From: a virus
Lineage: Duplodnaviria; Caudoviricetes
Virus record (IMG/VR): IMGVR_UViG_3300033979_000663
Span: 13,749-77,748 of that record
Strand: one strand, 5' to 3'
DNA: 64,000 nucleotides
Program-made: the position numbers and the translations under genes
The notes under the pieces: generated by a model
What the model was told of the DNA's origin: nothing
The model's input: the letters and a program-made list of their open reading frames with translations, nothing else
Databases searched by the model: none
Shown: positions 1 through 60,564 of the stretch, one piece after another
Position numbering within the stretch: position 1 is the stretch's first letter
Layout of the letters: every line of letters begins with the position of its first letter

Positions 1-49
1 TACAGGATTAGGTAAAGCATTCCAGGTTATTAACCAATTAGAGAAGCCC

Positions 50-3000
50 TTGGTTGGTGGGTTAGACAGAGTTTCTACTACAGCCGGGGGGTTGGGTGAC
101 GCATTAAGTAATTTGGGTGGAGTCGGGCAATTTGCGGCTCAAGGGTTATTTGCCGTTTCTAACGCTGCTGCATCGTTGGCTGGCATCACGGGGACTGTTG
201 ATACCATTGGTGACTTGTATCAAGTCATGGAGCAGATCCAGGAAGTTGCACCTGATGTAGCTAGTGGGATTGGTGAAATAGCTGGGGCTGGTGTGGGGAT
301 AGGTCAAGGTGTGCTGGGAGTGACTGACTTAAACACCGAATTATATCTTGCGGCTCAAGCTGGGAAGAAATTCGGCAATGAGATGACTAAATCATTGTCA
401 GGCGTTTTTGTTAAATTCGCTGATTTAAAATCTCAAGTCACCCAAACAATCACAGTCCTCTCTGCAATGGCTGGAACTTTTACTGACTTGGCTCTCCATT
501 TGAAAGATTTTGGCAAGGGTTTAGAAACCGTCAGAAACTTAGGTTTTGATACTCAAGCTATGGAAATAGCTAACTCCATTGGTTTGATTGGTGAAAATTT
601 AGTATTTAATACCGAAGCATCTAAAAACTTTGCTAATGCGGCTGTAGCTGCTTTTTCTAAGGTTGAAGATTCCCTGGCGTTTATTACCACCTTACCATCT
701 GGTCAAGCTGCTGGTATCCCCATGTTATCCAAGCAATTAGATGACTTGGTGAATGGTCCATTAAACAACATGATTTCTAAGGGTGAGGCAGCGTCGGCAA
801 TGTACCAATCGTTGTCCGCAGGTATTGGTGCTACCACAGGGAAGCTAAAAGAATCGCAACCATTCTTGGAAGCGGCATTAAAGCTGTCTACTGGTACAGA
901 TACAGCCGCTTCGACTACAGTGGAAACCTTAGCTAAATTGACTTATGCCTATAATTTAAACGTCAAGGATGCAACTACAACCGCCGCAAAGCTTAATGGT
1001 ATAGTTGAAGAAGGTATAATCACCTTCCCACAACTAGCCGGCGGCATTGGTCGGGTAGCAGGCGTGGCTGCACAAGCGAAAGTCCCAATGAATGAGTTAA
1101 TGGGTTCTATAGCGGCATTAACCAAAACCATGAGTGCGGACGATGCCATGACTGGATATATGTCCTTGCTCAATGCGATCGCTGGTGCAGGGGAGCAGTC
1201 AAAAAAAGCAGCTTCGGAATTAGGGGTGCAATTTGACTTACAGGCAGTGAAGGCGAAGGGGTTACTAAATGTTCTCAAGGATTTGTACGACAAATCTGGG
1301 GGTAACGTTGAGAGAATCAAAGAAATTATTCCTGACTCATTGGCGTTCGGTACATCGTTAACCTTGATGACTACCGCATTCAAAGAAGCCAAGGAAAAAA
1401 CAGATATCATAGCTGGCAAGGGTGCTGAGGATTTAGAAAAGTTATTTGGTGGTAGAAATCAGTCAATGGTTCGCCAAATGACATCCCTAGTAAATGGTTA
1501 TGAGGAAGTATTATCTGGGTTTGGTGAAAAGTTTGCTGACAACTTCAAGCCAGGGGTAGAGTTTCTGCGAATCATGCTAGAGAGATTTCAGCAGATGCCT
1601 GAACCAATTAAGGAAACGATTGGGGCGATCGTCTCTTTTAATATGGGACTAGAGAAAGCATCTGGTTTTATCTCTATCCTGGTGGGTGGCATCGCCAAGG
1701 TTGGGGTAGCTTTGGCAATTATGCGTATTTCCTCATTGGCGATGACGGGGCAATTGGGATTACTCCGGACAGCAGCAATGGGAGTATTCCAAGCATTTGT
1801 AGCAGGAACAGGCAGAACTGCGGCTTTGACAACGGCATTTAACACCCTGACGGGCGCACAACAAATTGCAGTGGCAACCACAGCAGGATTCACTAGGGCA
1901 ACTACCCTTTTATCTAAAGTCAACGAAATATTGACAACAGATATTACTCGATTAATTAGAAGGCACGTAATCCTTGCCCAATACACCGACCTCTCTACTT
2001 CGTCCGAGAAAGCAAGTGCGATCGCTAAAGGAATATTAGCTGCGGCAACGAAAGGTTTATCGGCTGCAATGACCTTTTTAGGGACAACAATCAAGGCGTT
2101 ATGGATTTCATTTGGACCACTAGCGATCGCTATTGGTGCGGCTGTAGTTATTTTTCAGACATTAAGTGAAGTAATTAGTTTTAATATTTTAGGTTTCAAG
2201 TCTGCGAGGGCTGAAGCGGAAGAATATGCAGCTAAATTAATAGATTTAGGTGAGGCTACTAAGAGCTATATAGATATTTTAGGTGAAGAAACCAAAGCTG
2301 TTGATAAGAGTGTTCAGGGCTACAAAGAAAGAATCAAACAATTGGATGAATTGCGGAAAAAGGAGAAAGATCCTGGCAGAAGACAGGCAATAGAAGATGA
2401 GATAAAAAACAACAAAACTCTTCTCAAAGCCCAACAGGAAAAGGAAGATAAAAAATACACTGGGTTTTTTAACACTGGGGTTTTGCCTTTTGCGGAAGGA
2501 GTAACAAAGGGTCTTTACAGCGTGGCATCTTTCATGAGTCCAGAAGAAGCAAAAGATAGGAATTACAAGAAAATAGAAGATAGTTTTCGTGGGTTTAAAG
2601 ATAAACACCAAGCCCGAATGGATGAGGAAAGTGGTGTTTATGCAGCAGAAGATCAAAATAGGCAACAAGTAACTGAATTATTTAGTCGGGCATATCGCCG
2701 CGCTCAGATATCAAAAGAAGGTGGTGCGGTTAGTGCTGAAGCCAGGGAAATATTAGAGTCTACAAAGTATCGCGCTTTGTCAGGTCCAGAGATGACAAAG
2801 GTGCTTGAAGCTGAAACCAAGGCTTACGAAAAGAACAAAGAAGCTATTGACGGCAAAGTAACGGCATTACAAGCTGCACTGGAAGCGACCCAAGACCCTG
2901 CAAGACAGGAACAGATAAAACAGGATATCAAACAATTAAATGATGCCACCGCAGCAGAGAAAAAATACAATGATGCTAAACTGCAATTCATTAGAGATAG

Positions 3001-5833
3001 AGAATCAATAAAAACAGCCCAAGAAGGCAACAAAGACCCCATTGAAAGGGTAAATGAACTGTTCCAAGAACAATATGAAAAAGCTGCTGAACTCAGGGAG
3101 AAGATGAAGTCAGCAACAACTCAAGATGAAAAAGACTTTTTAGACTTCCAGCAAAAATCAGCAGAAGCAACCTCTGAATTAACCGCTAAGTTTGGGCAAG
3201 GCATCCTACAGAATGGTGAACTAGGTAAAAAGCAAATAAACTCATTAACTGCTGCTTACAAAGAGTTTGCTGATAACCCATTAAAAACCGAGATAGGGAA
3301 TGCTGAAGACCTAAACAAAATGCGGTCTGATGCAGATAAATTCTTGGGAGAGATACAGAACAATATTCCCAATATTTCCACAGCTACAGCCGAGTCATTA
3401 GTCAAGGCTTTACTTGCTCAAAAGGTTAAGGTTCAAGGTAGTGATATTGTTCAAAGTATTTTATCCCCAGAACAAATTCAAGAAGCAGTAGATGTACTTC
3501 AGAAGATTTATGAAAAGTCAGCACAAGACCAAATTGATATCAATAACCGCAAGGTAGCTAAAATTAACAATCAAGAAGCGTTAGGTATTAAACGCCAAAC
3601 CTTAGCACAAAAAGAAATACTGGAAGTTGAGATTGAATCTAATGAGGAAAAACTGAAATCTAAACAAAAGTATCTAGATTTACTGGTCAGCATGAATTTG
3701 ATAGACAAAGAATCTGACCTGTACAAAAAACTCAATGATGAAATAGTTAACCTTCAGTATGATACAGAACAGAAGAAAACCAAGATTATTGAAGCAGCAA
3801 TTAATGATAGGGTAGCTTTAAATAAGCGTGGACTTGACAAAGAACAAGCGATCGCAGAACTTGGACGTGCCGCTAGATTGAATGAAGAACAGAAGACTCA
3901 GGATAAATTATTTGAATTACAGCAAAAGCAGAACTTAAATCAGAGAAAAGGGATTCGTGACAGGATTCAGGATTTAAAGGCAAGAGGTGGTGATTACAAT
4001 GAATTAGAAATTGAGTTATTAAAGTTGATGACTGAGTATGAAAACAACGTCAACGACAGAAATAAACAACTCGATGCCAGAGAAAAAGAAAGGCTTAACA
4101 ATCAAACCACTGAGCAGAACCAAATACTAGAAAAAGAGTTAAATTCACTTGAACTGCAATCTAAACAACTGGAAAGACAGAAAAATATAACTGAATCCAG
4201 GAATAATGCGGTTAAAACTGAGTCGGAAATCACCCAAAGCCGATTAGAATTGCAATTGCGGGTGACGGGTGATATTCAGAAGCAAGCAGATATTGAATAT
4301 GCGATCGCTAAGGAGAAGATTAAAAACCTACAATTATCCCAGAAGATTGAAAGGGAGAATTTAGTCACCCAACGTCAATTACAAACAATTGCCATTAACA
4401 GAGAGATTGTTGCCAACAAGATAGCCCAAGCTGAGAACCAGAGAGCGATCGCTGCTTTAAAAATTGATTTACTCCGTGCCAAGAATGAGAAGCGTTCCCT
4501 TGATGAAATTAAAGCAATGGAACTACAACTATTCTCAATGGAGGAACAGTCAAGGGTACTTGGTGAAACTGGCAAGGGGCTAGAGGCGAACAAGGAAACC
4601 CAGGAAAAGGTCGCCGAAAATACTGAACGTGAAGTGTTGGCACGGCAGAAGATTAGTATGGCTGGGGGGATATTAGATGAACACCAAGCTAAGATTAATC
4701 AGATACTTGCTAAATACGATAAACAGATAGAGCAAGCTAACCTTTACACCAAACAGATAGAGGTACAGAATATTCGTCTCACTGCCCAATCCGAGGCAAT
4801 GGGTAGGGTATATGACTTGCAGAATCAAATCATGGATTCTCAGAAGTCGGTATTGGAAAGTAGAACAAACCGATTGACTGGTGAGTTACAGATTGCCATG
4901 AATTTGACGACATCTGAAACCAAGAGACGTGATTTGGCTCAGACGATCGCTCAAATCAAACTCAGGACATTAGACAGACAACAGGAGATTGAACGCAGGG
5001 TTTTAGAGATTCAGTTATTACAAAACAAAGCTGCACTTGAAAGAGAAAAAATTCAACTCCGAACCCAGCAATCACAGAATAATGCCGATACATGGGGATC
5101 TTTTGCTAACCTACAAAAAGTATTGGCAAGTGATAAATCTACTGATGCAGAGAAGAAATCAGCACTCTATGACTTGCAAGCAAAACAGGAACAAGGTGCT
5201 TCATTAGCATACCAACAGCAAGCTCTTGGGGAGAAAGAAAGATTACAAGACTTCCTGGCAAATAACCAACGTAGCAATCTTAGAGACAGCCAATCATTAG
5301 CTAGAACACAAGCTGAGTATGAGGTAATTGGAACTTTATCACCTGGAGCGCAAAGAAGGGAGGGTCGAAAACTAAGAGACAGAATCCTTCGTGATAATTT
5401 AGGAATCACCCCCTATAGTGGTCCAATCAATGGGGGGATGATGGCGGAGGATCAGAATAAGCAGGATTGGAGAAATCTGCGAAATATGAACAGACGGGGT
5501 GGTATTGATGTGGGTATGCCTAATGCACCACAAATAACCCCTGATATTAGCTATGAAGAGTTCCGTAAAAACTACCTATCCAGGCAACAAGAGTTCTTAG
5601 TTCCACCCTCAATAAAAATGCCCTCCTTGGATACAAATATCCAGAAGGGCAAAGGAGAGAACACCAGGTCGGATGCTGGTACTACTATAGCTGAAATGAA
5701 GTTAATAGTAGAAGCTATCAACATTGATGTTACCAGTAATGCAAGCCCCAAAGATGCCGCTAAAGATGTGAAGCAAGCTATTTTAGATGAGTTGCATGAT
5801 CTGACGGCTAAGGTGAAAACTAAATTGAAGTAG
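50..5833 (+). CDS. Phage tail tape measure protein (true start probably upstream of the window)
   Basis: 1927 aa. The Ala/Gly-rich N-terminal part has a TP901-type TMP core (ETLAKLTYAYNL...GIITFPQLAGGIGRVAGVAAQAKVPMNELMGSIAALT), then hydrophobic segments and a long coiled coil. The frame is open back to the window start. Confidence 0.85.
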   Translation: MVGGLDRVSTTAGGLGDALSNLGGVGQFAAQGLFAVSNAAASLAGITGTVDTIGDLYQVMEQIQEVAPDVASGIGEIAGAGVGIGQGVLGVTDLNTELYLAAQAGKKFGNEMTKSLSGVFVKFADLKSQVTQTITVLSAMAGTFTDLALHLKDFGKGLETVRNLGFDTQAMEIANSIGLIGENLVFNTEASKNFANAAVAAFSKVEDSLAFITTLPSGQAAGIPMLSKQLDDLVNGPLNNMISKGEAASAMYQSLSAGIGATTGKLKESQPFLEAALKLSTGTDTAASTTVETLAKLTYAYNLNVKDATTTAAKLNGIVEEGIITFPQLAGGIGRVAGVAAQAKVPMNELMGSIAALTKTMSADDAMTGYMSLLNAIAGAGEQSKKAASELGVQFDLQAVKAKGLLNVLKDLYDKSGGNVERIKEIIPDSLAFGTSLTLMTTAFKEAKEKTDIIAGKGAEDLEKLFGGRNQSMVRQMTSLVNGYEEVLSGFGEKFADNFKPGVEFLRIMLERFQQMPEPIKETIGAIVSFNMGLEKASGFISILVGGIAKVGVALAIMRISSLAMTGQLGLLRTAAMGVFQAFVAGTGRTAALTTAFNTLTGAQQIAVATTAGFTRATTLLSKVNEILTTDITRLIRRHVILAQYTDLSTSSEKASAIAKGILAAATKGLSAAMTFLGTTIKALWISFGPLAIAIGAAVVIFQTLSEVISFNILGFKSARAEAEEYAAKLIDLGEATKSYIDILGEETKAVDKSVQGYKERIKQLDELRKKEKDPGRRQAIEDEIKNNKTLLKAQQEKEDKKYTGFFNTGVLPFAEGVTKGLYSVASFMSPEEAKDRNYKKIEDSFRGFKDKHQARMDEESGVYAAEDQNRQQVTELFSRAYRRAQISKEGGAVSAEAREILESTKYRALSGPEMTKVLEAETKAYEKNKEAIDGKVTALQAALEATQDPARQEQIKQDIKQLNDATAAEKKYNDAKLQFIRDRESIKTAQEGNKDPIERVNELFQEQYEKAAELREKMKSATTQDEKDFLDFQQKSAEATSELTAKFGQGILQNGELGKKQINSLTAAYKEFADNPLKTEIGNAEDLNKMRSDADKFLGEIQNNIPNISTATAESLVKALLAQKVKVQGSDIVQSILSPEQIQEAVDVLQKIYEKSAQDQIDINNRKVAKINNQEALGIKRQTLAQKEILEVEIESNEEKLKSKQKYLDLLVSMNLIDKESDLYKKLNDEIVNLQYDTEQKKTKIIEAAINDRVALNKRGLDKEQAIAELGRAARLNEEQKTQDKLFELQQKQNLNQRKGIRDRIQDLKARGGDYNELEIELLKLMTEYENNVNDRNKQLDAREKERLNNQTTEQNQILEKELNSLELQSKQLERQKNITESRNNAVKTESEITQSRLELQLRVTGDIQKQADIEYAIAKEKIKNLQLSQKIERENLVTQRQLQTIAINREIVANKIAQAENQRAIAALKIDLLRAKNEKRSLDEIKAMELQLFSMEEQSRVLGETGKGLEANKETQEKVAENTEREVLARQKISMAGGILDEHQAKINQILAKYDKQIEQANLYTKQIEVQNIRLTAQSEAMGRVYDLQNQIMDSQKSVLESRTNRLTGELQIAMNLTTSETKRRDLAQTIAQIKLRTLDRQQEIERRVLEIQLLQNKAALEREKIQLRTQQSQNNADTWGSFANLQKVLASDKSTDAEKKSALYDLQAKQEQGASLAYQQQALGEKERLQDFLANNQRSNLRDSQSLARTQAEYEVIGTLSPGAQRREGRKLRDRILRDNLGITPYSGPINGGMMAEDQNKQDWRNLRNMNRRGGIDVGMPNAPQITPDISYEEFRKNYLSRQQEFLVPPSIKMPSLDTNIQKGKGENTRSDAGTTIAEMKLIVEAINIDVTSNASPKDAAKDVKQAILDELHDLTAKVKTKLK

Positions 5834-12976: not shown

Positions 12977-13067
12977 ATTAATTGATATTTAAAATTACTA
13001 ACACCAGTAACAATATCTGTCAGTCCAACATAATTATTCTATAGCAGAATCTACTGCTATGCAACTA

Positions 13068-13424
13068 TTACCTTGCAATTTCCACAGGAATATATTTCTC
13101 ATCCTTGTAGGAGAAAACCTTATCAGGTCGAGATTTTAACCTCATCCCAGATTTTAGTTGCTCTACAATTTCTTCTGTCGCATCTGCTTTTAGAGTAGGC
13201 AGGTATAGCAGTAGGTACGAGTGACCAATAATAGAACAACTGCTATCAGAAATGAGGGTGATTTTGTCAGCGAATAAACCAAGGAAAGTATCGTTACTTT
13301 TATTGCACAGCTTTCTGACTGCGCCCATTTTTCTGGAAAACTGGACTTGGACAAAGACCACATCTGTACCCACGTTGTTATAAAGTACGTTGCCTAAGCT
13401 GGTAGGCAAGAATGAAATTTGCAT
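13068..13424 (-). CDS. Hypothetical protein
   Basis: 118-aa ATG ORF divergent from a small regulator. Confidence 0.5.
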   Translation of the reverse strand: MQISFLPTSLGNVLYNNVGTDVVFVQVQFSRKMGAVRKLCNKSNDTFLGLFADKITLISDSSCSIIGHSYLLLYLPTLKADATEEIVEQLKSGMRLKSRPDKVFSYKDEKYIPVEIAR

Positions 13425-13539
13425 ATTTCTGTTGTTGAAAAACTTGAATTGGACTTAAAACAACTCTATCTATAACACTATTGAATTATTTAAAGCAAGT
13501 CCATTACAATGGTTTTTTACCGTATATCAACATCCAACC

Positions 13540-13731
13540 ATGAGAGCATCAACAGCAGTCGGCGTAAGTCCAGAAATTAAAACAGCATTACAAAAAACAT
13601 CAGTTGAGGTCAGGCTAACAGTTAAGGAAACTATTTATATGGGCGTGAAGGCGATCGCGCTGCTGAGTGATGAACAAAAAGAAGCATTAGCAAATGAAGT
13701 CCATAAGTTACAGATGGCCGGAGATATTTAA
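13540..13731 (+). CDS. Small ribbon-helix-helix-like regulator
   Basis: TAVGVSPEIKTALQKTSVEVRLTVKETI has a beta-helix-helix pattern; followed by a terminator. Confidence 0.45.
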   Translation: MRASTAVGVSPEIKTALQKTSVEVRLTVKETIYMGVKAIALLSDEQKEALANEVHKLQMAGDI

Positions 13732-13748
13732 TATTAGTTTTGCAAAAG

Positions 13749-13779
13749 AAAAAGCCCTGGATAATTCCGGGGCTTTTTT
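13749..13779. terminator. Bidirectional intrinsic terminator
   Basis: AAAAAGCCCTGGATAATTCCGGGGCTTTTTT. Confidence 0.75.
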
Positions 13780-13801
13780 GTATGTTCGAGTCGAATATTT
13801 A

Positions 13802-14089
13802 TTACTCAGGTAAAGGTTGAACTCTCCATCCGTCAAACCAATCTGGATTCTTAGTGGCAAAATCTAGATCAGACTTATACTTTTCGTCATTCAAGAAATA
13901 TGCTTTATTCGCCATCCCCAATGAATCCAAATTATCTTCATCCTTTAGCCTCAAACACTCCCTTGGTGTAGTCCAGTTCTGTCAACCCTCGATGCATGGG
14001 GATACAACCAATGGTATAGGAAAAGCCTTTGAACTTGTTATTAATAAAGACTTCTCTTTGCGCCAAGGTAACGGGTATCTGGCATTCAT
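13802..14089 (-). pseudogene. ORF interrupted by one in-frame TGA (13984-13982)
   Basis: MNARYPLPW...SPCIEG*QNWTTPRECL...WRVQPLPE* in a single frame, translated by hand. Confidence 0.35.
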
Positions 14090-14243
14090 CCCCGTAATGC
14101 CCCTACAAGCCGCAATCAAGGCTAAAGGTACTTTGGATTTGGTCTATGTTTGCGACAGTAACCAGTTTTACTCCTGGTTTGGGTTTTCACCCCTTGTTTT
14201 TTACAGGTCGGACAAAGCTTATATTTCTTGTCCTTCCAGGTTC

Positions 14244-14543
14244 TTACTTTTTTGGTTCACCTCTACTGCATATCACTTGATGCAGAAACGGGACTAAAGC
14301 AAATGCTGTTTCTTCTGTCAGCGCGTCCAGTACCACAATTAGTTTTACTGCTTCGTCATCCATGCCCTGATTCCACATCGGTTTCTCGAAATAGCAGCTT
14401 GCACAATAGGCGATCGCAAACCCTAGCGTATCTTTACCGACTTTATCGAGTGTGCTACCAAATTCCTGTTCAATCTTTTCTAGGATTTCGTGGTCAGGGT
14501 AGTCTTCGGGAACTGATACGTAATATCCGATTGGTTTAGTCAT
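14244..14543 (-). CDS. Hypothetical protein; candidate -1 frameshift extension to 14122 adds a zinc finger
   Basis: Ends CCA AAA AAG TAA; the -1 frame reads VRTWKDKKYKLCPTCKKQGVKTQTRSKTGYCRKHRPNPKYL*. Confidence 0.65.
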   Translation of the reverse strand: MTKPIGYYVSVPEDYPDHEILEKIEQEFGSTLDKVGKDTLGFAIAYCASCYFEKPMWNQGMDDEAVKLIVVLDALTEETAFALVPFLHQVICSRGEPKK

Positions 14544-14544
14544 T

Positions 14545-14823
14545 TTAGTCCCTCTTTTTTTTCCACCTCTGGGATTTCTGTTCTGCTTTTTTGTTGATTT
14601 TTTCCAAAATACTCTTTACCTTCTCGCCTTCTTCTCTCGTAGGTATTCCATTAACTCTAAAAATTACAACCCATCTAGCACCGCTTCCATCAGTTCCCCA
14701 GAGTTCCCATTTTTCAGAAATATAGGGTTTTATCTGAGTGTCATACAGATCCCATATACTATCCCCGTCATGAACCCCAAATGCTATTTTGCAATCAGAC
14801 CAAGGCACGTCATTTTTAATCAT
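14545..14823 (-). CDS. Hypothetical protein
   Basis: 92 aa, 1 bp from the next gene. Confidence 0.6.
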   Translation of the reverse strand: MIKNDVPWSDCKIAFGVHDGDSIWDLYDTQIKPYISEKWELWGTDGSGARWVVIFRVNGIPTREEGEKVKSILEKINKKAEQKSQRWKKKRD

Positions 14824-14863
14824 GTTGTTTCTGGTGTGTGTTGTGAGGCAATTTGTGCGATCG

Positions 14864-15058
14864 CTATTTACCGCGATGATTTGTTCCGTTAAATAGCTTG
14901 TTAAATTCTGCTATATTCTCTGGCTTGATGGAGTACAGGATCTCGTTAACAGCCTCGTCTGCCTCCTCAAACTCTTGACTATCGCAGTGAAAGGATTCTC
15001 TGCGATCGAGGGCTTTCTTTACCTTTGCCACTATCTCTTGAACTGATGTATAGGTCAT
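14864..15058 (-). CDS. Hypothetical protein
   Basis: 64 aa, preceded by a GGAG RBS. Confidence 0.6.
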   Translation of the reverse strand: MTYTSVQEIVAKVKKALDRRESFHCDSQEFEEADEAVNEILYSIKPENIAEFNKLFNGTNHRGK

Positions 15059-15191
15059 TGTTTTACTCCGTTGGATGCAATCATCTTACTACCGTTTACT
15101 ACCGTTTGACAATAAGTAATTACATATTAATTTTATACGCCCTGCTTTTAACATACACTTTCATAATCGAGTCGAACATTACGGCAGAATC

Positions 15192-15345
15192 AGGGTTTTG
15201 AGTCCGTTTCTACTATCAGAGCTATTGGCTCTGTAAAAGGGGGGAAGATTTTAACCAAAGAGGAAAATTTCTCCCTCCTGGTAAAAGAAAAAATTGGTTT
15301 AATTGGAATCTATCTGCTCTGATAGTAGAAACGCTTCAAAACCCT
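15192..15345. repeat. About 30-bp imperfect inverted repeat
   Basis: AGGGTTTTGAgtcCGTTTCTACTATCAGAGC (15192-15222) and GCTCTGATAGTAGAAACGctTCAAAACCCT (15316-15345). Confidence 0.85.
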
Positions 15346-15475
15346 TGTTTTGACTGGGTTCTAGGTACTTAGGTATTTTGGCTTGACTTAGTTATAAAAA
15401 TGCTTTAAGATTTTGACAAATAAAAAACCCCAGACGTGAATCCGGGGCAGTTAATATAGAAATAAAACCTTTAAT

Positions 15476-16327
15476 ATGCAAACAATAACAGAAAAACTCC
15501 TGATTAGTCAACCCCAAAAGAACGAAAAGTTTAAAAAGATTGAAGATTACGTCAAAAACCTGCGTGATGAACAGATCCTAAGCCACATGGGCATGGCGAA
15601 CTATTACCTTGTTTGCATCTTCACCCAGTACGAACTCTTTGATAAAGAGACAAGGGATTTTTGGGACTTGAGAGGCTTGCTGAATAATGACAACATCCAA
15701 GCAAAGATAAACCTGGAAAAGAGTTCAGAGTATATCAAAGAGCATTGGGCTGGTTCATTTTTCTCTGTTCCCAAGATAAGAGAATACAGAGATTGGCTGC
15801 GATCGCTTGGTTTGTATCAATATCCTGACCAACCAACAGGAGCTAGAAACGGCGGTAAAGAGCAGACAGTGTACGAACCACCACTAATGGAAAAGGTTGA
15901 TATTATTGGACTGGTTTATCTGTTCAAGGTCTGCCAGAACGAATTTAACGATCGCTACCCCACTGGACAAAGAACCTTGCGTTACAGCAAGGGTAAGACC
16001 ATGCCTAGCATAATTCCTAATCATGGTGGGTATTTCGTTCAGAAATTGTATGATGAATTAAACTTCTACTTTGCTGAAGCGGTAGAGGAAGATGAGCAGC
16101 TAACAGAAGTCTACAGAGAGCATTACGAAATCGAAGATCCATCGGAGCATGACTATCTTGGAGATAGAAGACTTCCTTTGTATGTCAAAATCGCTGAACC
16201 TTTGGTGGTGGCAATGTATGAGTACGGAAGAAGATCGTTCCGTAAAGTCAAGAAATTCGTTGTGGAGTTACGGGAAGATTTATTTGGTGGCTATGCAGAC
16301 GATCAAATCGAAGCAATTCCTTACTAA
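15476..16327 (+). CDS. Hypothetical protein, possible replication initiator
   Basis: Stand-alone gene between two long palindrome-rich non-coding regions, with a wHTH-like segment FSVPKIREYRDWLRSLGLY. Function is inference. Confidence 0.4.
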   Translation: MQTITEKLLISQPQKNEKFKKIEDYVKNLRDEQILSHMGMANYYLVCIFTQYELFDKETRDFWDLRGLLNNDNIQAKINLEKSSEYIKEHWAGSFFSVPKIREYRDWLRSLGLYQYPDQPTGARNGGKEQTVYEPPLMEKVDIIGLVYLFKVCQNEFNDRYPTGQRTLRYSKGKTMPSIIPNHGGYFVQKLYDELNFYFAEAVEEDEQLTEVYREHYEIEDPSEHDYLGDRRLPLYVKIAEPLVVAMYEYGRRSFRKVKKFVVELREDLFGGYADDQIEAIPY

Positions 16328-41047: not shown

Positions 41048-41245
41048 ATGCCCCTCATAATTTTAAAGATAAAGGATGGTTTCAATCTTAATAACCATCC
41101 TTGCCTGACTAGAAAGGCTGGTATTGGAAATTATCTTTTGATATGCCATATACCCCAGCCACAGATACAAAGCTTAAAAATAGATCCTTGCGTTGAATCG
41201 TTAAGGATTGAGAAATGGCTAAAAACTTATTTTAAAGACAAATGA
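41048..41245 (+). CDS. Hypothetical protein
   Basis: Operonic; ATGA overlap with the next gene. Confidence 0.45.
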   Translation: MPLIILKIKDGFNLNNHPCLTRKAGIGNYLLICHIPQPQIQSLKIDPCVESLRIEKWLKTYFKDK

Positions 41246-41652
41246 ACGACGAATTTCTGAAAAAGGCAATAGATTGGGCTTCTGCGAATAAGCCTGATGC
41301 AAGCATGAGCCACAAAGCAGCTTTCGCCAATTCTGTGGCTTACCTTTGCTCCGGCTGGAGCGGAGGTTATGGTGGACCCTCAATGAGGGAGCATCTTTGC
41401 TCTTGGGCATTAGCTGGAGATGAAGGACTGAATGAAACAGCAAGTCTCAATGGGCTTGCCATAACGATTCAATTCCCTGACAACAGGCTACCCCGCCCTG
41501 GACATTGGAGATTTGAGGAAGCAGTCAAGTTCTGCGAACCTCTCTGCTTTGAACCAGCACAGAAGCATTTGAAAATTTTAGTGCAAATCTCCGAAAGAGA
41601 GCATTGCTTCGACGATGACCCCGAAGATATCAAAGTATTGCGGGGAAAGTAG
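41242..41652 (+). CDS. Hypothetical protein; candidate -1 frameshift extension to 41891 adds a zinc finger
   Basis: Ends CGG GGA AAG TAG; the -1 frame is open for about 80 codons. Confidence 0.7.
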   Translation: MNDEFLKKAIDWASANKPDASMSHKAAFANSVAYLCSGWSGGYGGPSMREHLCSWALAGDEGLNETASLNGLAITIQFPDNRLPRPGHWRFEEAVKFCEPLCFEPAQKHLKILVQISEREHCFDDDPEDIKVLRGK

Positions 41653-41944
41653 TTAAGTTAGTTAATGGCTGTTACTCCCTAGAACCAGCCAGAAAACTAA
41701 CATCAAATCTTCTTGAATATGTGTTGTCGGTGGCGCGTATTCAGGAAGGGGCAAACATCTGTAGAGGACTAAAAAATCCTTACACGGTGTGCTGTAAACA
41801 TCTTGCAGTTCAAAATCGTTCTGGCTACTGCAAGAACCACCGTCACCAGTCACCTTCCCAAAAGGCGGCTGTGAAAAAAGCCAGAAAGTAAACCCGTCCA
41901 TGTTCGATTCGATTATCGGGCATGGGCGATCGCAAACCACTAAT

Positions 41945-44740: not shown

Positions 44741-45175
44741 ATGAAAGTATCTGAGTTACACCAATTAATCGGTCGCCCTGCTTTTAATATTGGCGATCGA
44801 GTTATCCACTCTTATGAAGTTGGTTGGGTATCCCACATCAACTTAAATCACGAAAAGAAACAGTACATCTATATGGTGGTAAACGAGGAAGGCGCGTACA
44901 TCAATGGCACAGCAACAAATAGCGGGTTTTCTATCGAAGAAATCAAACCCGATGAAGGAGAATTAGCCGATGTGTCTAATTGCTATCCTTGCCGATCGCT
45001 GTTTTTAAGAGCCTCTGGTAATCGCCCTGCTGTTAAAGTCAATAAATCATGTCATCTTGATTCAAGTAAGGATAGATGGATTTGCTGGTTGCTTGAGAAC
45101 GGTGAATGGCAAATCAAAGGGGAGTTCAAAGATCCCGATGATGCGATCATGATGGCTATGTCATACAGAAAATGA
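44741..45175 (+). CDS. Hypothetical protein
   Basis: GAGGAG RBS before MKVSEL. Confidence 0.6.
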   Translation: MKVSELHQLIGRPAFNIGDRVIHSYEVGWVSHINLNHEKKQYIYMVVNEEGAYINGTATNSGFSIEEIKPDEGELADVSNCYPCRSLFLRASGNRPAVKVNKSCHLDSSKDRWICWLLENGEWQIKGEFKDPDDAIMMAMSYRK

Positions 45176-47247
45176 ATCTGACAAATAGAGAGTATTTGGA
45201 GGCAGCGATCGCCTCTATCAAAATCCTCCGCAAACAATCCCCCTTAACGGAACAAGAAAGGGGGATTTTGCTTGCATTCCCTGGGGGTGGCATCCTCAAG
45301 GAGTGCGGGGTTTTCACCGACGACGATAAACCCCGTTGGTTAGTTGAGGGTCGGGAGGAGTTGCGATCGCTCCTCACCAATGAAGAATGGGAAGGGATAC
45401 AGAATAGTGGGATGCAAAACTCCCACTACACCTTACCCCAAATACGTCAAGCTATGTGGGAGGCACTACTGCCATTAATAGAAGATCCTTGTGTTCTCAG
45501 GGTGCTTGATCCTGGATGTGGTACGGCTGGTTTTCTTTGGGATATGCCCAATGATGACCGACTCACGTATTACGGCATTGACAAGGACGTTTTGCCTGTT
45601 GCGATCGCCCGGAAAGCGATAGGCAAAAGCAAGCACCAACTGGTAAAGCAGGATTTCTTGCAACATGATCCCATGTTTCCTTATGGTGCTGCCATCGGCA
45701 ATGTTCCGTTTGTTAATGGCGTTAACTCAATGGTGTTAGAGGGCAAGAAATTGGGTATTGCTATTCATGCCCAATTCTTCATTAAGTCCGTCCAGTTACT
45801 AGCACCTGGCGCACCTCTAATGTTCCTCACCTCAACTACGACACTTGATGCTAGGGGTGAGGATTACGTCTGGTTTCGCCGATGGTTGCACAGAAAATGT
45901 GAGTTCATCGGTGCGTTGAGATTACCTGCGGATGCCGTTCATCATGGCAACACTCAGGTAACAACTGATTTGATTATCCTTCGTCGTCGCAAGGGTAAGG
46001 ATTGCAATGAACCCGATACTAATTGGATTGAAGTGGTGGAAAGTGATTTGATTAATCCCCACTACAACATCCCTGTGTTGTACAACCAATGGTTCATTGA
46101 TAATCCCTGGTGTTTGTTAGGCGATCGCACTATTTCCAAAGTGCGAGGTAAAAACGGCAATCCTACCAATTGCCTTGCAATTCAATCTCGTCCAAATTTC
46201 GCAAAAGAATTGCGTGAGTCCTTAGCAAAACTCACGCATCAAAACAACGTATCTAACAAGGAGAATCATATCATGGCTACATTAATCCCTGCTGATAAGT
46301 TCCAGTCTTATTCCGTTTTCTCTTTCATTCTCAGAGAGAATCCAAAACAACAAGGGGTTGAGATTCATTTCCCCCCTGAGTATGTAGCGGAAAGCGATGC
46401 TGAAAAAACCCTGTTAGAGCAAATTAAGTCTAAGGGGCTTGTCGCTGCTAAGTCTAATCCTTCGTTGTTCTACATCAAGCCCCGAACATCGGAAGAACAC
46501 GCTCAACTAATGGCATATATGCGTAAGAAGGTAGCAGCTTGTTCTAAGTGGGGGGCTTGTGAATTAGATGCCGACACACCTGTGGAAGAAATTAAGCCGC
46601 GCCGTCGCTGGGGAGGCAACAAGGAAAACAAGCCCGTTGAACCTGTCGCTACTCCTACGTCTGCTCCCATTGTGGATGCGATCGCCCAACGACTACAGCC
46701 GATGTTCGATGAATTGGCTAGTAAAATCCAAGTTCCTGCTGCTGACCCCAAAGAGTTGCAGGAGGCACAAGCGAAACTTACTGACTACCTGCACAGGTGG
46801 CAGAAGGATCAAGAAACTTTTAAGACGTTAAAATCGGAGGTGGATGTCTTTGTTGGTCTTAACGAAGAATTGAAAAGAGACAATGAGGATTTGCGATCGC
46901 AGCTTGCAGATGTTACCGCAAAAATCGTTGAACTCAATGGCACGGTTCATGAGTTACAAACGGAATTGAAAGAAACCAGGGAAGCTGATATAGAACTCAT
47001 GAGGCAAGTTGAATCCTTGCAAGAAAAAAACGAGGGATTGCGATCGCAACTTGCAGAGTTTGGTGTTGGTGTAACCCAACAACCCGAACCTGACCTGGTT
47101 GACGATGAACCTGACTTGCAGGATGAACCTGACTTGCAGGATGAACCTGACTTGAGTGACGACGAAGACCTCCCCTCTGCATTCCAACCCCAATCATCTG
47201 ATGACGATGATGAAGATGGCTTCAACATAGCGTTACTGGGGGAGTAA
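45172..47247 (+). CDS. DarB-type N6-adenine methyltransferase fused in frame to a coiled-coil/acidic protein (internal start 46273)
   Basis: AFPGGG, SHYT, VLDPGCGTAGF, IGNVPF, ALRLP...NTQVTTDLIILRR; AAGGAG-N9-ATG at 46273. Confidence 0.8.
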   Translation: MNLTNREYLEAAIASIKILRKQSPLTEQERGILLAFPGGGILKECGVFTDDDKPRWLVEGREELRSLLTNEEWEGIQNSGMQNSHYTLPQIRQAMWEALLPLIEDPCVLRVLDPGCGTAGFLWDMPNDDRLTYYGIDKDVLPVAIARKAIGKSKHQLVKQDFLQHDPMFPYGAAIGNVPFVNGVNSMVLEGKKLGIAIHAQFFIKSVQLLAPGAPLMFLTSTTTLDARGEDYVWFRRWLHRKCEFIGALRLPADAVHHGNTQVTTDLIILRRRKGKDCNEPDTNWIEVVESDLINPHYNIPVLYNQWFIDNPWCLLGDRTISKVRGKNGNPTNCLAIQSRPNFAKELRESLAKLTHQNNVSNKENHIMATLIPADKFQSYSVFSFILRENPKQQGVEIHFPPEYVAESDAEKTLLEQIKSKGLVAAKSNPSLFYIKPRTSEEHAQLMAYMRKKVAACSKWGACELDADTPVEEIKPRRRWGGNKENKPVEPVATPTSAPIVDAIAQRLQPMFDELASKIQVPAADPKELQEAQAKLTDYLHRWQKDQETFKTLKSEVDVFVGLNEELKRDNEDLRSQLADVTAKIVELNGTVHELQTELKETREADIELMRQVESLQEKNEGLRSQLAEFGVGVTQQPEPDLVDDEPDLQDEPDLQDEPDLSDDEDLPSAFQPQSSDDDDEDGFNIALLGE
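47104..47154 (+). repeat. 18-bp coding tandem repeat (DEPDLQ, about 2.8 units)
   Basis: GATGAACCTGACTTGCAG units. Confidence 0.85.
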
Positions 47248-51545: not shown

Positions 51546-54500
51546 ATGGCTTATCAAGATAAACGTACATTTTTGAGTGGTGACTTAGGCGAGAAATTAG
51601 AAAGGGTTAGAAGAGTAGTAGAAATAGATCCATCTTTTAAAAGAGAAGAGGAAGCGATCGCTAACGCTATCCCCAAACAAATACCTATTGAGTTGATTGA
51701 CCTTTCCCCTGGTACGCAATGGATACCCACTACAACTTATGAAGAATTTATCTTGGAAACCTTTGGGGTTGAATGCAAGCTATTCTTCTCCCCCACTATG
51801 GGAGTATGGGACATTGTTGTCACAGATAACAAAGCACTAAAGAGTGAAAATAATCCCCACGTCGAAGTTACCAAGAGAGAGAAGGGTGAAGACTATCAAG
51901 CGTGGGTTTATGCGATCGCTGAATCCATCAACAATGGTATTTTCACTTCTATGTTCCACTTTAAATCCCCACCTGGGATTCAGTATGATACTGACAAGCA
52001 AGTTGTCAGAGCAAAGCAGGATGAACTCACGGATACTTTTGTTAAATGGTGCAGGAAAAATAAAGGTGAGGAACTGCAAAAACTGTATAACCGCAGATTT
52101 AATAGTGCGGTAATTCCTAACTGGGATAATTCAGCACCTAAGAACCTGAAGGAAATATTAAAAACTGCTGGTATGACTGGCAGGTTAAACGGTGTTAAAA
52201 AGTTTATTGATGTCTTTGTCCAAGAAGACGGAAGTGTTGTACAAGAAGAACGGATTGTAGAGGATGGGGTGCTATGGGTAGATGCGCTTCGCCCTTACCA
52301 GTTGGATGCAATATGGCGCATGGCTACCCAACCCTGCAACGGATTGTTAGGGCTGGAGGTAGGGTTAGGTAAAACCGCCTGTGGTATTGCCACTGCTATG
52401 TTGAGAAGGTATCTGAAAACCAGCAACTTGACGATGGTTGTGGTGCAAAAATCCACCCTGCTCCAATTCGATAAAACCTTTCGGGAGATGTTTCCCAACG
52501 CCAAGGTTCTATGCGCCAAGAGTAATGACATGAATCAAAAATCAAGGCAATCGTTCTTGGCGAAGGCTGTCCTGTGGGAATGGGACGCAATCATCCTAAC
52601 TCATGATAATTTTCAAGCAATTCCGGTGCGATCGGAAACAAATCGGGTTTATATCCAAAGAAAACTCGATTTGATTGAGTGGGAGATGACATCTATTGAA
52701 TCATCTGGTGAAGTGTCCTATAAAACCAAGGGGAGGAGAGGTAACTACGTCCTCAAAAGGCTAGAGGCGGAAAGGGATAAGCTCAACAACGATTTATTAA
52801 AGTTAGAAAAGGACAGAGACGGTGGTATCCGCTTTGAGGATATTAACCCCTCGCTATTAATAGTAGACGAGGCGCAGAAGTACAAGAACAATCACTATGC
52901 CTCAAAAATCCAAGCCAAGGGGATTGGTGGTTCTCAATCCAATATGGCTCAAGACCTGGATATAAAGTTAGGGTTCTTGCGAGAAACCCGTGATAACCCT
53001 AACTTCCTGTTATTTATGACAGGAACGCCCGAACCCACCAATTCAATTGCGGGGGTGTATGTTTACCAGATGTATTTACACCCTGAAGAGTTGGAGAAAC
53101 GAGGTATCAAACATTTTGACGCTTGGGCGCATCAGTTTGGTAAAGTTGTAACTCGTGCCGAATACTCCCCGTCAGGGGGATTTGTGGAAACCACAAGGTT
53201 CTGCAAGTTTGTGAATATGCCTGAGTTATCGCTAATGTACAAGATGTCGCTCCACTACAAGCGATACTACCATGTGCAAGGTCAAGCAGGGTTCAAAAGA
53301 CCAGAACCAAAAGAAATGAGGGTATCTTCACCGCTAACTGACTTCCAGATACGTAGGATGGATCAGCTTTGCGATCGCTACAATGCACTCAAAATCGGCG
53401 TTCCTCTCAGATTCCCTGATCGGGACAACAGGGACGGGTGCTTGATTTACCAAGAAAGAGACTCAGAAGGCAAGAAGATAGGTAAACCGCAACGACTATA
53501 CCATCCAGGGACGACTAACCCCATCAAGGATGAAAATGTTGCTAGTGATTACGGACTTGTTTGGAGCGATCGCCCCGACGGGTATCTTGATGTCTATAAC
53601 GAAATGCGGCGGTTAATGATTGCCCCGCAGTTTGAAGACCTTGATGAAGTCGTATTCAGTACCGATAAGATTGCTAAATGTGCCAGAAATATCTACCGGA
53701 TATGGAAGGCAACAAAGAAAAGGCAAAGCACTCAGTTAGTATTCTTGGACATGGGTGCGCCTAACGGTGGTTGCAAATTCCAAGCCTATCAATGGTTAAA
53801 AGAGCGATTAGTTGAATATGGGATACCCAAGGGAGAAATTGCCTTTATTCAATCGGCAAAAACTGACCAAGCAAAAGCCGACTTATTCGATAAGGTTAAC
53901 GCTGGTGAGGTTAGGGTACTAATCGGACACCGTGAGTCTATGGGTGTTGGGGTCAATGTCCAGAAGAAAGTTGTCGCCATGCACATGGTAGACATCCCAT
54001 TCCGTCCTGACCAGAATGAGCAAGCGATCGGTAGAGGTATCAGGGATGGCAACGAGAACGAGAAGGTTCTCATTCTCTGGTATATTTACCGCGCCAAAAA
54101 AGGCAGTAGTCAATGTAGTGCTGATACTGCATCAATGGATCTATTAGCCATTAAAGCTAAACAGCAATTCCAAGTTCTTGACGGTGACGCTACCGCTAGA
54201 GAGGTAGAGGAAGAAGACCATAAGAGTGCCGCTTACGCTGCTTTATCAGCCTACGCCACTGGCGACCCAAGGCACATGGAATTGGCTAACTTGAAATCTG
54301 ACATAGTTGGTGTATACGCCAAACATCGGTTGCTGGAAACCGAAACCATTGACTTGAGAATTAATTTGTCTTCAACCCAAGAGCGTATCAAGAGCATGAC
54401 CAGGAAACATGAGTTCTTACTTCCTGATGTGAATAGTGTAGAGACTAACAAACATCGGTACTTCTCCGACAACCACTTTGCAATAGTGATTCATTCCAGA

Positions 54501-58630: not shown

Positions 58631-58906
58631 TTATTTTTTCTTCTGATAAGTTTGTCTCTCTGGCGCGTGATTTTTGTGGGCTTCGCAATATGGATAGATT
58701 GCGTCGCTTCTTAAACCAGGATTACACACAAGGCAGTTCATACTAGCTGCTATTTCTTCAGGTGGCCAAACCGGAAAACCTGAGTCTGATATTTTCTGTA
58801 AAAGTTCAACATGATATGCCCTGATGATTCTGTGGCGGTGAGTAGGGATATCTTGTTTAAATAACAAAATATAGTCAGAATTGTTGAAATCTAAACGAAT
58901 ATACAT
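58631..58906 (-). CDS. Small protein with C-terminal CxxC...YCxxH zinc finger
   Basis: CLVCNPGLRSDAIYPYCEAHKNHAP. Confidence 0.6.
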   Translation of the reverse strand: MYIRLDFNNSDYILLFKQDIPTHRHRIIRAYHVELLQKISDSGFPVWPPEEIAASMNCLVCNPGLRSDAIYPYCEAHKNHAPERQTYQKKK

Positions 58907-60150: not shown

Positions 60151-60564
60151 TTATTTTTTCTTCTGATAAGCTTGTCTCTCTGGCGCGTGATTTTTGTGGA
60201 CTTCGCAATATGGATAAATTGCGTCGCTTCTTAAATTAGAATTGCACACAAGGCAGTTCATACTAGCTGCTATTTCACTAGCTATGGGCGTATCCGGATC
60301 AAATGATGTTGTGACAATAGCTATAGGTTTACCCGCTTCTTTAATGGCTTGCCATTTACATCTATTCCTGTAGTGGCTAACTATGGGTGCTGCTAACCAG
60401 TAGGGTATTCTCCCACAGGATATAATTAGTCCCTTTGTTCCATTAATTTCCGGGAATGTCATCTGTAGTAAGTCTAGTCTATCTGCTTTTCCCCTGACTT
60501 GAATAAATATCCAAGTCTCCAAGTCTTTTTCTACGGTGGTAATTTTTGTAGTCATAATCAACAT
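60151..60564 (-). CDS. Divergent Csx3-like domain fused to a zinc finger
   Basis: FPEINGTKGLIISCGRIPYWLAAPIVSHY...KWQA...AIV resembles Csx3 G(V/I)(V/I)(I/L)SGR.P.WL...L.H. Confidence 0.55.
   Translation of the reverse strand: MLIMTTKITTVEKDLETWIFIQVRGKADRLDLLQMTFPEINGTKGLIISCGRIPYWLAAPIVSHYRNRCKWQAIKEAGKPIAIVTTSFDPDTPIASEIAASMNCLVCNSNLRSDAIYPYCEVHKNHAPERQAYQKKK

Follow-up and report, generated by a model that had tools for sequence, protein, structure and literature searches.

A heptamer, a stop codon and a zinc-finger reading frame behind a 99-residue gene

The DNA analysed here, which we call the window, is a stretch of 64,000 nucleotides (nt) that spans positions 13749-77748 of the 77.7-kb IMG/VR virus record IMGVR_UViG_3300033979_000663, a record estimated to be 72% complete. 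On its minus strand lies a gene for a 99-residue protein, N1, that stops directly after a slippery heptamer and is followed, in the −1 frame, by a reading frame for a small zinc finger. This locus, site 1, has the following features.

14244..14543, minus strand: 0-frame gene N1, 99 residues, ending ...VICSRGEPKK, with its TAA at 14246-14244.
14257..14263, minus strand: Shine–Dalgarno (SD)-like GAGGTGA, 3 nt 5' of the heptamer, of which only GGTGA is common to the relatives.
14257..14259, minus strand: TGA stop of the −1 frame, three codons 5' of the shift, in a GG TGA RCC context common to all six loci.
14247..14253, minus strand: slippery heptamer A AAA AAG, in phase with the 99-residue frame, with the 0-frame UAA (14246-14244) directly 3' of it.
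14122..14247, minus strand: putative −1 extension of 41 codons, VRTWKDKKYKLCPTCKKQGVKTQTRSKTGYCRKHRPNPKYL, with a basic CxxC-x15-CxxH zinc finger, ending at the TAG at 14124-14122.

The terminal codons of the 99-residue open reading frame (ORF) are CCA (14255-14253), AAA, AAG (14249-14247) and TAA. A first-pass annotation of the window had pointed to this minus-strand gene, to its CCA AAA AAG TAA end and to the in-phase heptamer at 14253-14247, and all of these are present in the sequence. It had also described the −1 frame as closed by a stop just upstream, devoid of a start before the first Cys pair and encoding a finger down to 14122, and this description was borne out. The TGA at 14259-14257 bars ribosomes that come from upstream in the −1 frame from reading into the finger ORF; after this TGA the frame runs for 44 codons, 41 of them past the shift, to the TAG at 14124-14122; and codon-by-codon reading found no in-frame ATG, GTG or TTG, nor any CTG, ATT, ATC or ATA, before the first Cys pair of the window finger.

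To gauge how far chance alone goes, we scanned the window mechanically for ORFs of at least 60 residues (n = 178). The −1 frame was open for at least 41 codons past the stop in 40 of the 178, and an X XXY YYZ heptamer stood directly before the stop in only two, both of which lead in the −1 frame to a similar type of finger. The heptamer and the open −1 frame of site 1 are by themselves within chance, and the case therefore depends on relatives of the locus.

Relatives carry the same module behind an unrelated N-terminal domain

Comparison with related loci delimited a further feature of site 1, which contains most of those given above.

14122..14261, minus strand: mobile module made up of the GEPKK linker codons, the heptamer, the stop and the finger ORF, with similarity running from GGTGA (14261) to TAG (14122).

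Five other loci, L014 to L018, have this module behind N2, an N-terminal domain unrelated to N1. The GGTGA at which similarity starts (14261) is the Gly codon of GEPKK. In blastn comparisons of the window with L014, L015 and L016, positions 14261-14129 were covered at 81-82%, and a contig from the public run X19 matched 14122-14261 at 136 of 140 positions with both flanks replaced. When 20 kb of the window was compared with the 82-kb relative G402, the module was the best of five short matches. Because the similarity begins at GGTGA, ends at TAG and is found behind two unrelated domains, these comparisons show linker, heptamer, stop and finger to be a single mobile unit, put behind at least two unrelated N-domains by recombination.

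The arrangement within the module is largely constant. L015, L016, L017 and L018 combine the N2 domain with a run of six A (A6), the TAA and a finger in the −1 frame, as in the window; three of them, L015, L016 and L018, are identical to each other over the gene. The DNA of L014 reads CCA AAA AAA GTA, a run of seven A (A7) that places N2 and the finger in one frame through the same GEPKK linker. An alignment of homologous loci had been suggested in the first-pass annotation as a check on conservation, and the heptamer and frame offset proved to be kept, with A6 and TAA, in five of the six loci with DNA, the sixth being the in-frame A7 form of L014. Counted as distinct sequence types, there are three A6 forms and one A7 form. 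The upstream TGA in the −1 frame and the absence of a start codon are also kept in the A6 loci (the window, L017, and L015, L016 and L018 as one type).

At the protein level, the in-frame form is represented by P0035, an L014-type fusion of 129 residues seen on 19 contigs; in L014 the corresponding ORF lies at 4001-4390. Its N-terminal 86 residues are unrelated to N1, and the sequence that follows, ...LGGEPKKVTWKDREYKLCLTCKKQG...GYCRKHRPNPKYL, matches the window finger at 33 of 39 positions. The structural model of P0035 was of low confidence (predicted local distance difference test, pLDDT, 60.6), and residues 77-97, which span the GEPKK junction, had a pLDDT of <50; such a segment would fit a flexible linker. 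The protein collection searched with the 41-residue peptide held no stand-alone site-1 finger of 22-72 residues, P0035 had no match in the phage collection, and neither an exact 36-nt pattern nor a degenerate pattern of the module matched in the viral_contigs collection.

These relatives bear on whether the finger could be a separate small gene with a non-standard start, translated by coupled re-initiation after the TAA with help from the SD-like GAGGTGA. That sequence does lie just before the stop, stand-alone fingers with an ATG of their own occur in other phages (L068-73, L084/85), and distant homologues of the 99-residue protein are often coupled to the next gene through an ATGA overlap. 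However, no start or near-cognate codon precedes the first Cys pair, and in L015 the first start-like codon of the finger frame is a TTG between the two Cys; moreover, the GEPKK codons are part of the conserved module, and the in-frame relative makes a fusion. We regard a separately initiated finger as hardly credible.

The length of the A run deserves particular attention. Contigs of four further public runs cover the site without an indel at the run, in agreement with the A count that the first-pass annotation had wished to see checked in the reads, and a sequencing or assembly error at the run was ruled out by the independent assemblies and by the three sequence types, all of them A6. The annotation had also held that homologues with an in-frame fusion and no heptamer would speak against its reading. 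An in-frame relative was indeed found, but in it the run persists, as A7, nested among A6 forms. A6 is seen with either finger subtype and with either N-domain, whereas A7 occurs once, within the L015 subtype (the L014 finger differs from that of L015 at 9 sites and from that of the window at 22). By parsimony, we infer that A6 is the older state because it spans both subtypes while A7 is nested in one. Since the A7 run is still present and is nested in this way, the in-frame relative suggests that the fused product is functional rather than providing an argument against recoding.

Proteins of the N1 type end at the same point. Close homologues of the 99-residue protein fall into three clusters with 10 member sequences, all of 95 residues and all ending EPKK. 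With the window's own protein included, the N1 type comprises four clusters, every one of which stops after EPKK.

The finger is conserved in the −1 frame

Between the window and L015, 24 of the 123 nt of the finger differ, distributed 5/2/17 over the three codon positions, an excess at third positions with a binomial p of 1.9e-4. Among the 41 codons, 15 differ synonymously and 5 non-synonymously. The window and the X19/L017 type have only four differences, three at synonymous third positions and one a Y>F change as read in the −1 frame, and the sole indel among the relatives' fingers is of 3 nt, which removes or adds one codon and leaves the frame intact. These data indicate that the finger ORF is under purifying selection in the −1 frame, and the finger is very probably a selected C-terminal extension of the upstream gene. 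It is difficult to see how the out-of-frame state could have persisted with the finger under selection if the A6 form did not express it.

Alternatively, the A6 forms could be truncated alleles in which the finger is no longer expressed and looks intact only because the break is recent. The existence of an in-frame relative is compatible with such a loss, as is the negative outcome of the stimulator search described below. A recent break is difficult to reconcile with the divergence of 24/123 nt between the window and L015, which has accumulated with a 15:5 synonymous bias and without a stop or a frame-breaking indel. A6 is also present in both finger subtypes and behind both N-domains, and the same design recurs at a second site in 4/4 loci. 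Truncation is thus a quite improbable explanation.

Within the finger, conservation is uneven. A stretch of 38 nt in its 3' half (14132-14169, minus strand; AAAACTGGTTACTGTCGCAAACATAGACCAAATCCAAA) is near-invariant in all four sequence types, synonymous sites included, unlike the 5' half of the finger ORF, which varies freely. A small hairpin, ACCAG..CUGGU, just upstream of this stretch is kept, without covariation. An RNA element or a recombination joint are candidate causes of the near-invariance.

The ligand positions C12, C15, C31 and H34 are invariant in alignment A5 of the finger, and the matching columns are invariant in A9, an alignment of 13 sequences that defines a phage 'CxxC...GYC(K/R)xH' finger family. 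In hhalign, the site-1 fingers aligned with the A9 family at a probability of 79% (E 1.5e-5, 24 columns), with the spacing off by 3 residues, and an own-genome hidden Markov model (HMM) search with the finger family recovered site 1 at E 6e-3. Eight of the 13 A9 members match DUF5763 at E<=1 (best E 6e-4), all below the Pfam cut-off; the first member, for example, scored 17.8 bits (E 0.0024), short of the 26.3-bit gathering threshold. The A9 family also has a sub-threshold match to a 'probable treble clef' family. The site-1 finger itself had no match in Pfam at E<=10 and none among solved structures at a meaningful E-value, and Atlas, PHROG and structure searches with P0035 and the finger gave nothing usable. 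Judging from its composition and finger type, the finger would bind zinc and nucleic acid.

A second stop-adjacent heptamer leads to a similar type of finger

Four fingers of this apparent type are present in the phage, two reached through the −1 frame and two in frame. Besides site 1, they lie in the following features.

41242..41652, plus strand: 136-residue ORF ending CGG GGA AAG TAG, with the heptamer G GGA AAG (41643-41649) in phase and adjoining the stop (site 2).
41649..41891, plus strand: putative −1 extension of site 2, 80 codons, ...ICRGLKNPYTVCCKHLAVQNRSGYCKNHRH..., with a related GYCxxH (GYCKNH) finger, from translation of the −1 frame.
60151..60564, minus strand: 137-residue ORF with an in-frame C-terminal finger, ...NCLVCNSNLRSDAIYPYCEVHKNHAPERQAYQKKK, from the own-genome HMM search.
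58631..58906, minus strand: 91-residue ORF that differs from the preceding one in its N-terminal part but has an almost identical C-terminal finger in frame, ...NCLVCNPGLRSDAIYPYCEAHKNHAPERQTYQKKK, from the own-genome HMM search.

The −1 frame of site 2 contains ...VCCKHLAVQNRSGYCKNHRH..., and its heptamer and TAG are kept in 4/4 loci (the window, L094, L095 and L096). Over codons 1-24 past the shift, L094 and L095 differ at 2/1/8 sites by codon position, with 8 synonymous and 2 non-synonymous changes, and this synonymous bias begins at the first codon past the shift. The two in-frame copies, in the 137- and 91-residue ORFs, have a common C-terminal module, ...EIAASMNCLVCN..LRSDAIYPYCE.HKNHAPERQ.YQKKK. 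We also noted that codons 25-28 of the site-2 extension include in-frame GTG/TTG, so an internal start there is formally possible.

Relatives of the site-2 finger were found at 27 IMG/VR loci (L067-L093) as small basic fingers of the form CxxC..QNRSGYCKxH..KYR. Most are stand-alone ORFs of 47-56 residues with an ATG, and some form the N terminus of a longer ORF. One of the loci, L086, has at 1992-2605 (plus strand) an unrelated 175-residue ORF with an in-phase G GGA AAG (2486-2492) that lies two codons before the CxxC in the −1 frame; the finger frame there is without any ATG, GTG or TTG, and the 0-frame stop comes 9 codons further on. G GGA AAG, the heptamer of site 2 and L086, is also that of the lambda G/GT frameshift. 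A tail assembly chaperone (G/GT) reading of the G GGA AAG site was ruled out by gene context and by the lack of chaperone domains: site 2 is flanked by small unknown genes and by DarB-like/helicase genes, with no major tail or tape-measure gene among its neighbours, and neither the 99-residue nor the 136-residue ORF had a chaperone match in Pfam or PHROG. As G GGA AAG is not a homopolymer, site 2 and L086 are not explained by changes in the length of a run, whether in DNA or in RNA.

This bears on the possibility that slipped-strand mutation switches the DNA between A6 and A7 and so toggles the finger, each genome making one isoform. The A6 and A7 forms are both natural and have an intact finger ORF, and contigs drop rare variants, so that a mixed population would escape notice. 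The two forms differ, however, at 9 further finger sites, and hence are not phase variants of one strain. A6 is found in all contigs of the four runs and in three sequence types, the four N1-type clusters all stop after EPKK, and the G GGA AAG cases cannot switch in this manner. A run of six or seven is, in addition, short for frequent slipped-strand change. We consider it unlikely that switching of the DNA accounts for the locus.

Site 1 is probably a recoded gene

The 99-residue gene and the 41-codon finger ORF are best explained as one recoded gene of a cyanobacterial virus. Within this explanation, it is probable that a −1 ribosomal frameshift on A AAA AAG is put to use to make a short and a finger-bearing isoform. 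The first-pass annotation had proposed a −1 shift that yields two isoforms, with and without a C..C..YCxxH finger, and this proposal gains support from the relatives, from selection in the finger frame and from the natural fusion. Most ribosomes would terminate at the UAA and release the 99-residue helical protein, and a fraction would slip back one base on A AAA AAG. The slip could occur in tandem, or, with the stop in the A site and slow to be decoded, the P-site Lys-tRNA could shift its pairing from AAG to AAA. Slipped ribosomes would then continue as ...GEPKK-VRTWKD..., thereby adding the basic CxxC-x15-CxxH finger, and the outcome would be two isoforms in a fixed ratio. The trans-frame protein is the predicted product of the A6 form.

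The same product could arise if RNA polymerase added one A within A6, giving mRNAs with CCA AAA AAA GTA from which the fusion is made by ordinary translation. Nothing would distinguish this protein from the product of the −1 shift or from the one that L014 encodes with its genomic A7 run. According to an excerpt of PMC5009743, dnaX of Thermus, which has two Lys tRNAs, uses polymerase slippage in place of ribosomal shifting, and G001, a Sphaerospermopsis genome that has a distant homologue of the 99-residue protein, likewise has both Lys tRNAs. Efficient bacterial cases are nevertheless reported, in the excerpts of the literature used here, at runs of 9 A or T, and the run here is of 6. The same excerpts report that short runs need a nascent-RNA hairpin just upstream, and the upstream hairpin at site 1 is unconserved (z −1.3 in the window; +1.8 and +0.7 at N2-type loci). 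The two parallel cases, moreover, use G GGA AAG, which has no homopolymer. Because the run is short and the upstream hairpin unconserved, transcriptional slippage is disfavoured, and we think it an unlikely source of the long product.

Several observations weigh against −1 ribosomal frameshifting at site 1. AAAAAAG is not over-represented in the window (31 occurrences observed, 31.8 expected). We found no conserved downstream stimulator, as 0 of 12 predicted pairs covary in a consensus fold of four sequences, and a hairpin that starts 13 nt 3' of the heptamer in the window (z −1.6) is absent from the relatives. Stimulators of the 3' stem-loop or pseudoknot type are placed a few nucleotides downstream. 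The first-pass annotation had noted an SD-like AGAGG 6 nt before the heptamer; the position was right (14264-14260), but its role as a stimulator did not hold. PMC5009743 puts SD-like stimulators of −1 shifts at a spacing of 9-14 nt and those of +1 shifts at 3 nt, and the element here, at 3-6 nt from the heptamer, falls outside the −1 range, its 3 nt being the +1 spacing. As a −1 stimulator it was ruled out on this ground, and it lends the −1 shift no support.

The host may also be less permissive than E. coli. In PMC5009743, the high shiftiness of E. coli AAG is put down to the one Lys tRNA of that bacterium. G001, the only cyanobacterial genome checked for tRNA-Lys and one that may not represent the host of the phage, has tRNA-Lys UUU x2 and CUU x1 among 44 tRNA matches, and with a tRNA-Lys(CUU) the reason for high AAG shiftiness in E. 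coli may not apply. An A6/A7 difference between relatives is, furthermore, also expected from a change of run length in the DNA. Finally, the uniform EPKK end of the 95-residue clusters would fit the same arrangement as in the window, with the finger behind those clusters being assumed; no locus encoding a close homologue of the 99-residue protein was found in the viral_contigs, genome_contigs, metagenome_contigs, plasmids or phages collections. A stimulator is usual for high-level shifting and is not needed for shifting at a low level. Because no stimulator is conserved, the efficiency of the shift is probably low, with the long isoform making up a low to moderate share.

The N1 protein, its wider family and the probable host

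The AlphaFold model of the 99-residue protein (pLDDT 85.4) predicts a small four-helix domain. Pfam, PHROG, Atlas and solved-structure searches with the protein gave no usable match, and fold searches with the helical model stayed at chance level (Foldseek best E 1.2; VIA best Z 5.2).

A distant N1 family of proteins of 85-120 residues was found (24 matches at E<=1e-3). Among the genomes searched, these distant homologues occur only in cyanobacterial genomes, in 10 of 401 sampled genomes, and this makes a cyanobacterial virus or prophage, with about 40% G+C, the most likely identity of the element. The public runs in which the window stretch occurs are lake and other freshwater metagenomes, four of which contain every sampled word. 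No finger was found behind the distant homologues in the cyanobacterial genomes, so frameshifting is not a trait of the whole N1 family. At three of these loci (L003, L004 and L008), the next gene overlaps the stop of the homologue as ATGA and starts in the −1 frame at an ordinary start codon. This overlap in the wider family shows translational coupling, not frameshifting.

Genomic setting of site 1

Site 1 belongs to an operon of small genes (64-, 92- and 99-residue), upstream of which lies one further conserved feature.

15080..15149, minus strand: non-coding island, conserved, with a promoter-like site; 89-90% identity by blastn, syntenic with L014, L015 and L016.

The promoter-like sequence of this island is TTGTCA..TAAGAT at 15112-15083, and N1 and N2 replace one another at the syntenic place downstream of it. 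Genes near site 1 include a sigma factor, a PadR-type regulator, RusA and an FtsK-like ATPase, from Pfam/PHROG matches. An Rfam search of 13000-15500 gave only sub-threshold chance matches, and no tRNA genes were found in the window.

In the neighbouring 92-residue gene, a run of eight A (14554-14562, minus strand) includes A AAA AAG in phase, two codons ahead of the stop. Slipping by −1 at this point would extend the protein by just 4 codons and leads nowhere; a contig from run X7 has several insertions in this A8 stretch.

On the other side, about 700 nt 3' of the finger stop (13425-14121, minus strand) are without a clear gene. At the sharp points 13946|13947, 14098|14099 and 14121|14122, relatives have about 190, 320 and 580 nt inserted, and an island at 13720-13949, with a 50-residue ORF (13802..13954), matches L015 at about 80% identity. 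The gene that comes next in L014, L015, L017 and L018 begins 11-12 nt past the finger TAG, with TAGGAG as its SD sequence. Elsewhere in the window, the ORFs at 45172-47247 and 51546-55061 (plus strand) have PHROG matches to DarB-like antirestriction, DNA methyltransferase and helicase proteins with E values down to 1e-140, and an ORF of >1900 residues occupies 1-5833 and extends beyond the window edge.

Discussion

The recurrence of the finger behind unrelated proteins raises a tentative wider possibility: that it forms, with its shift site, a self-contained mobile recoding cassette that recombination drops behind unrelated small genes, that each of these thereby comes to have two isoforms, with a nucleic-acid-binding finger on a fixed minority of the molecules, and that this sub-stoichiometric share of finger-bearing product tethers early or regulatory proteins to DNA or RNA. 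As conceived, such a cassette would take in at least three N-domain families, two heptamers, and in-frame and stand-alone versions in cyanobacterial viruses. If this is true, it would be a general and previously unrecognized means of dosage-controlled domain addition by frameshifting, outside structural and transposase genes; utilized phage frameshifts are known mainly from tail chaperones, capsid and tail immunoglobulin (Ig)-like extensions and transposases. The N1, N2 and 136-residue protein families, with L086 as a fourth, provide a set of test cases with two canonical heptamers and a natural in-frame control in the A7 form, and they come from cyanobacterial viruses, a group in which recoding has received little attention. 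They would allow a direct test of shifting on A AAA AAG and G GGA AAG next to a stop, with no known stimulator and perhaps with two Lys tRNAs present in the host. Gene callers miss fingers in the −1 frame, and the protein collection searched contained the in-frame form alone, so that members of this small zinc-finger family are under-counted.

Several known systems resemble site 1 in part. In E. coli dnaX (tau/gamma) and in the IS3 family, the same heptamer, A AAA AAG, in the same phase gives two products per gene (PMC5009743, PMC4066793, both in excerpt). In dnaX there is a 3' stem-loop and the shift shortens the protein, whereas here the stimulator is unconserved, the 0-frame stop abuts the heptamer and a domain would be added. 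The SD-like stimulator of dnaX lies about 10 nt upstream of its heptamer, compared with 3-6 nt for the SD-like element here.

A −1 shift near the end of an ORF yields a C-terminally extended minor product in T7 gene 10A/10B, and PMC5009743 mentions both T7 and T3. The site, the product and the host are different in our case. B. subtilis cdd (CGA AAG) is reportedly another stop-proximal −1 extension, with an SD-like stimulator at about 14 nt; site 1 has none at that distance. The lambda-like tail chaperone G/GT frameshift (PMC5009743, in excerpt) differs in that the carriers here are not chaperones and the extension is a zinc finger. The likeness of the finger to Pfam DUF5763 and the 'probable treble clef' family consists in four metal ligands in two knuckle-like pairs. 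In the portions of the literature covered, we found no case of frameshifting in cyanophages, or of frameshifting with zinc fingers in phages.

The closest parallel in biology is with the Ig-like C-terminal domains of structural proteins in T3, Lactobacillus phage A2 and Listeria phages, which are mobile and are attached in frame or through +1/−1 shifts, and for which recombination has been proposed to deliver the domain into one frame or the other (PMC5009743, in excerpt). Like these, the finger occurs in different frame relations to its carriers: a single phage has it twice in frame and twice in −1, and one A7 relative has it in frame. Unlike them, it is a basic zinc finger of about 40 residues on small, non-structural carriers in cyanobacterial viruses, and it moves together with its linker and shift site. 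By analogy, then, the site may work in the manner of a dnaX/IS3-type −1 shift, and its biology appears closest to that of the phage Ig-like domains; what is new here is the type of domain, the group of viruses, the stop-adjacent heptamers, for which no stimulator was recognized, and the joint movement of a domain and its shift site.

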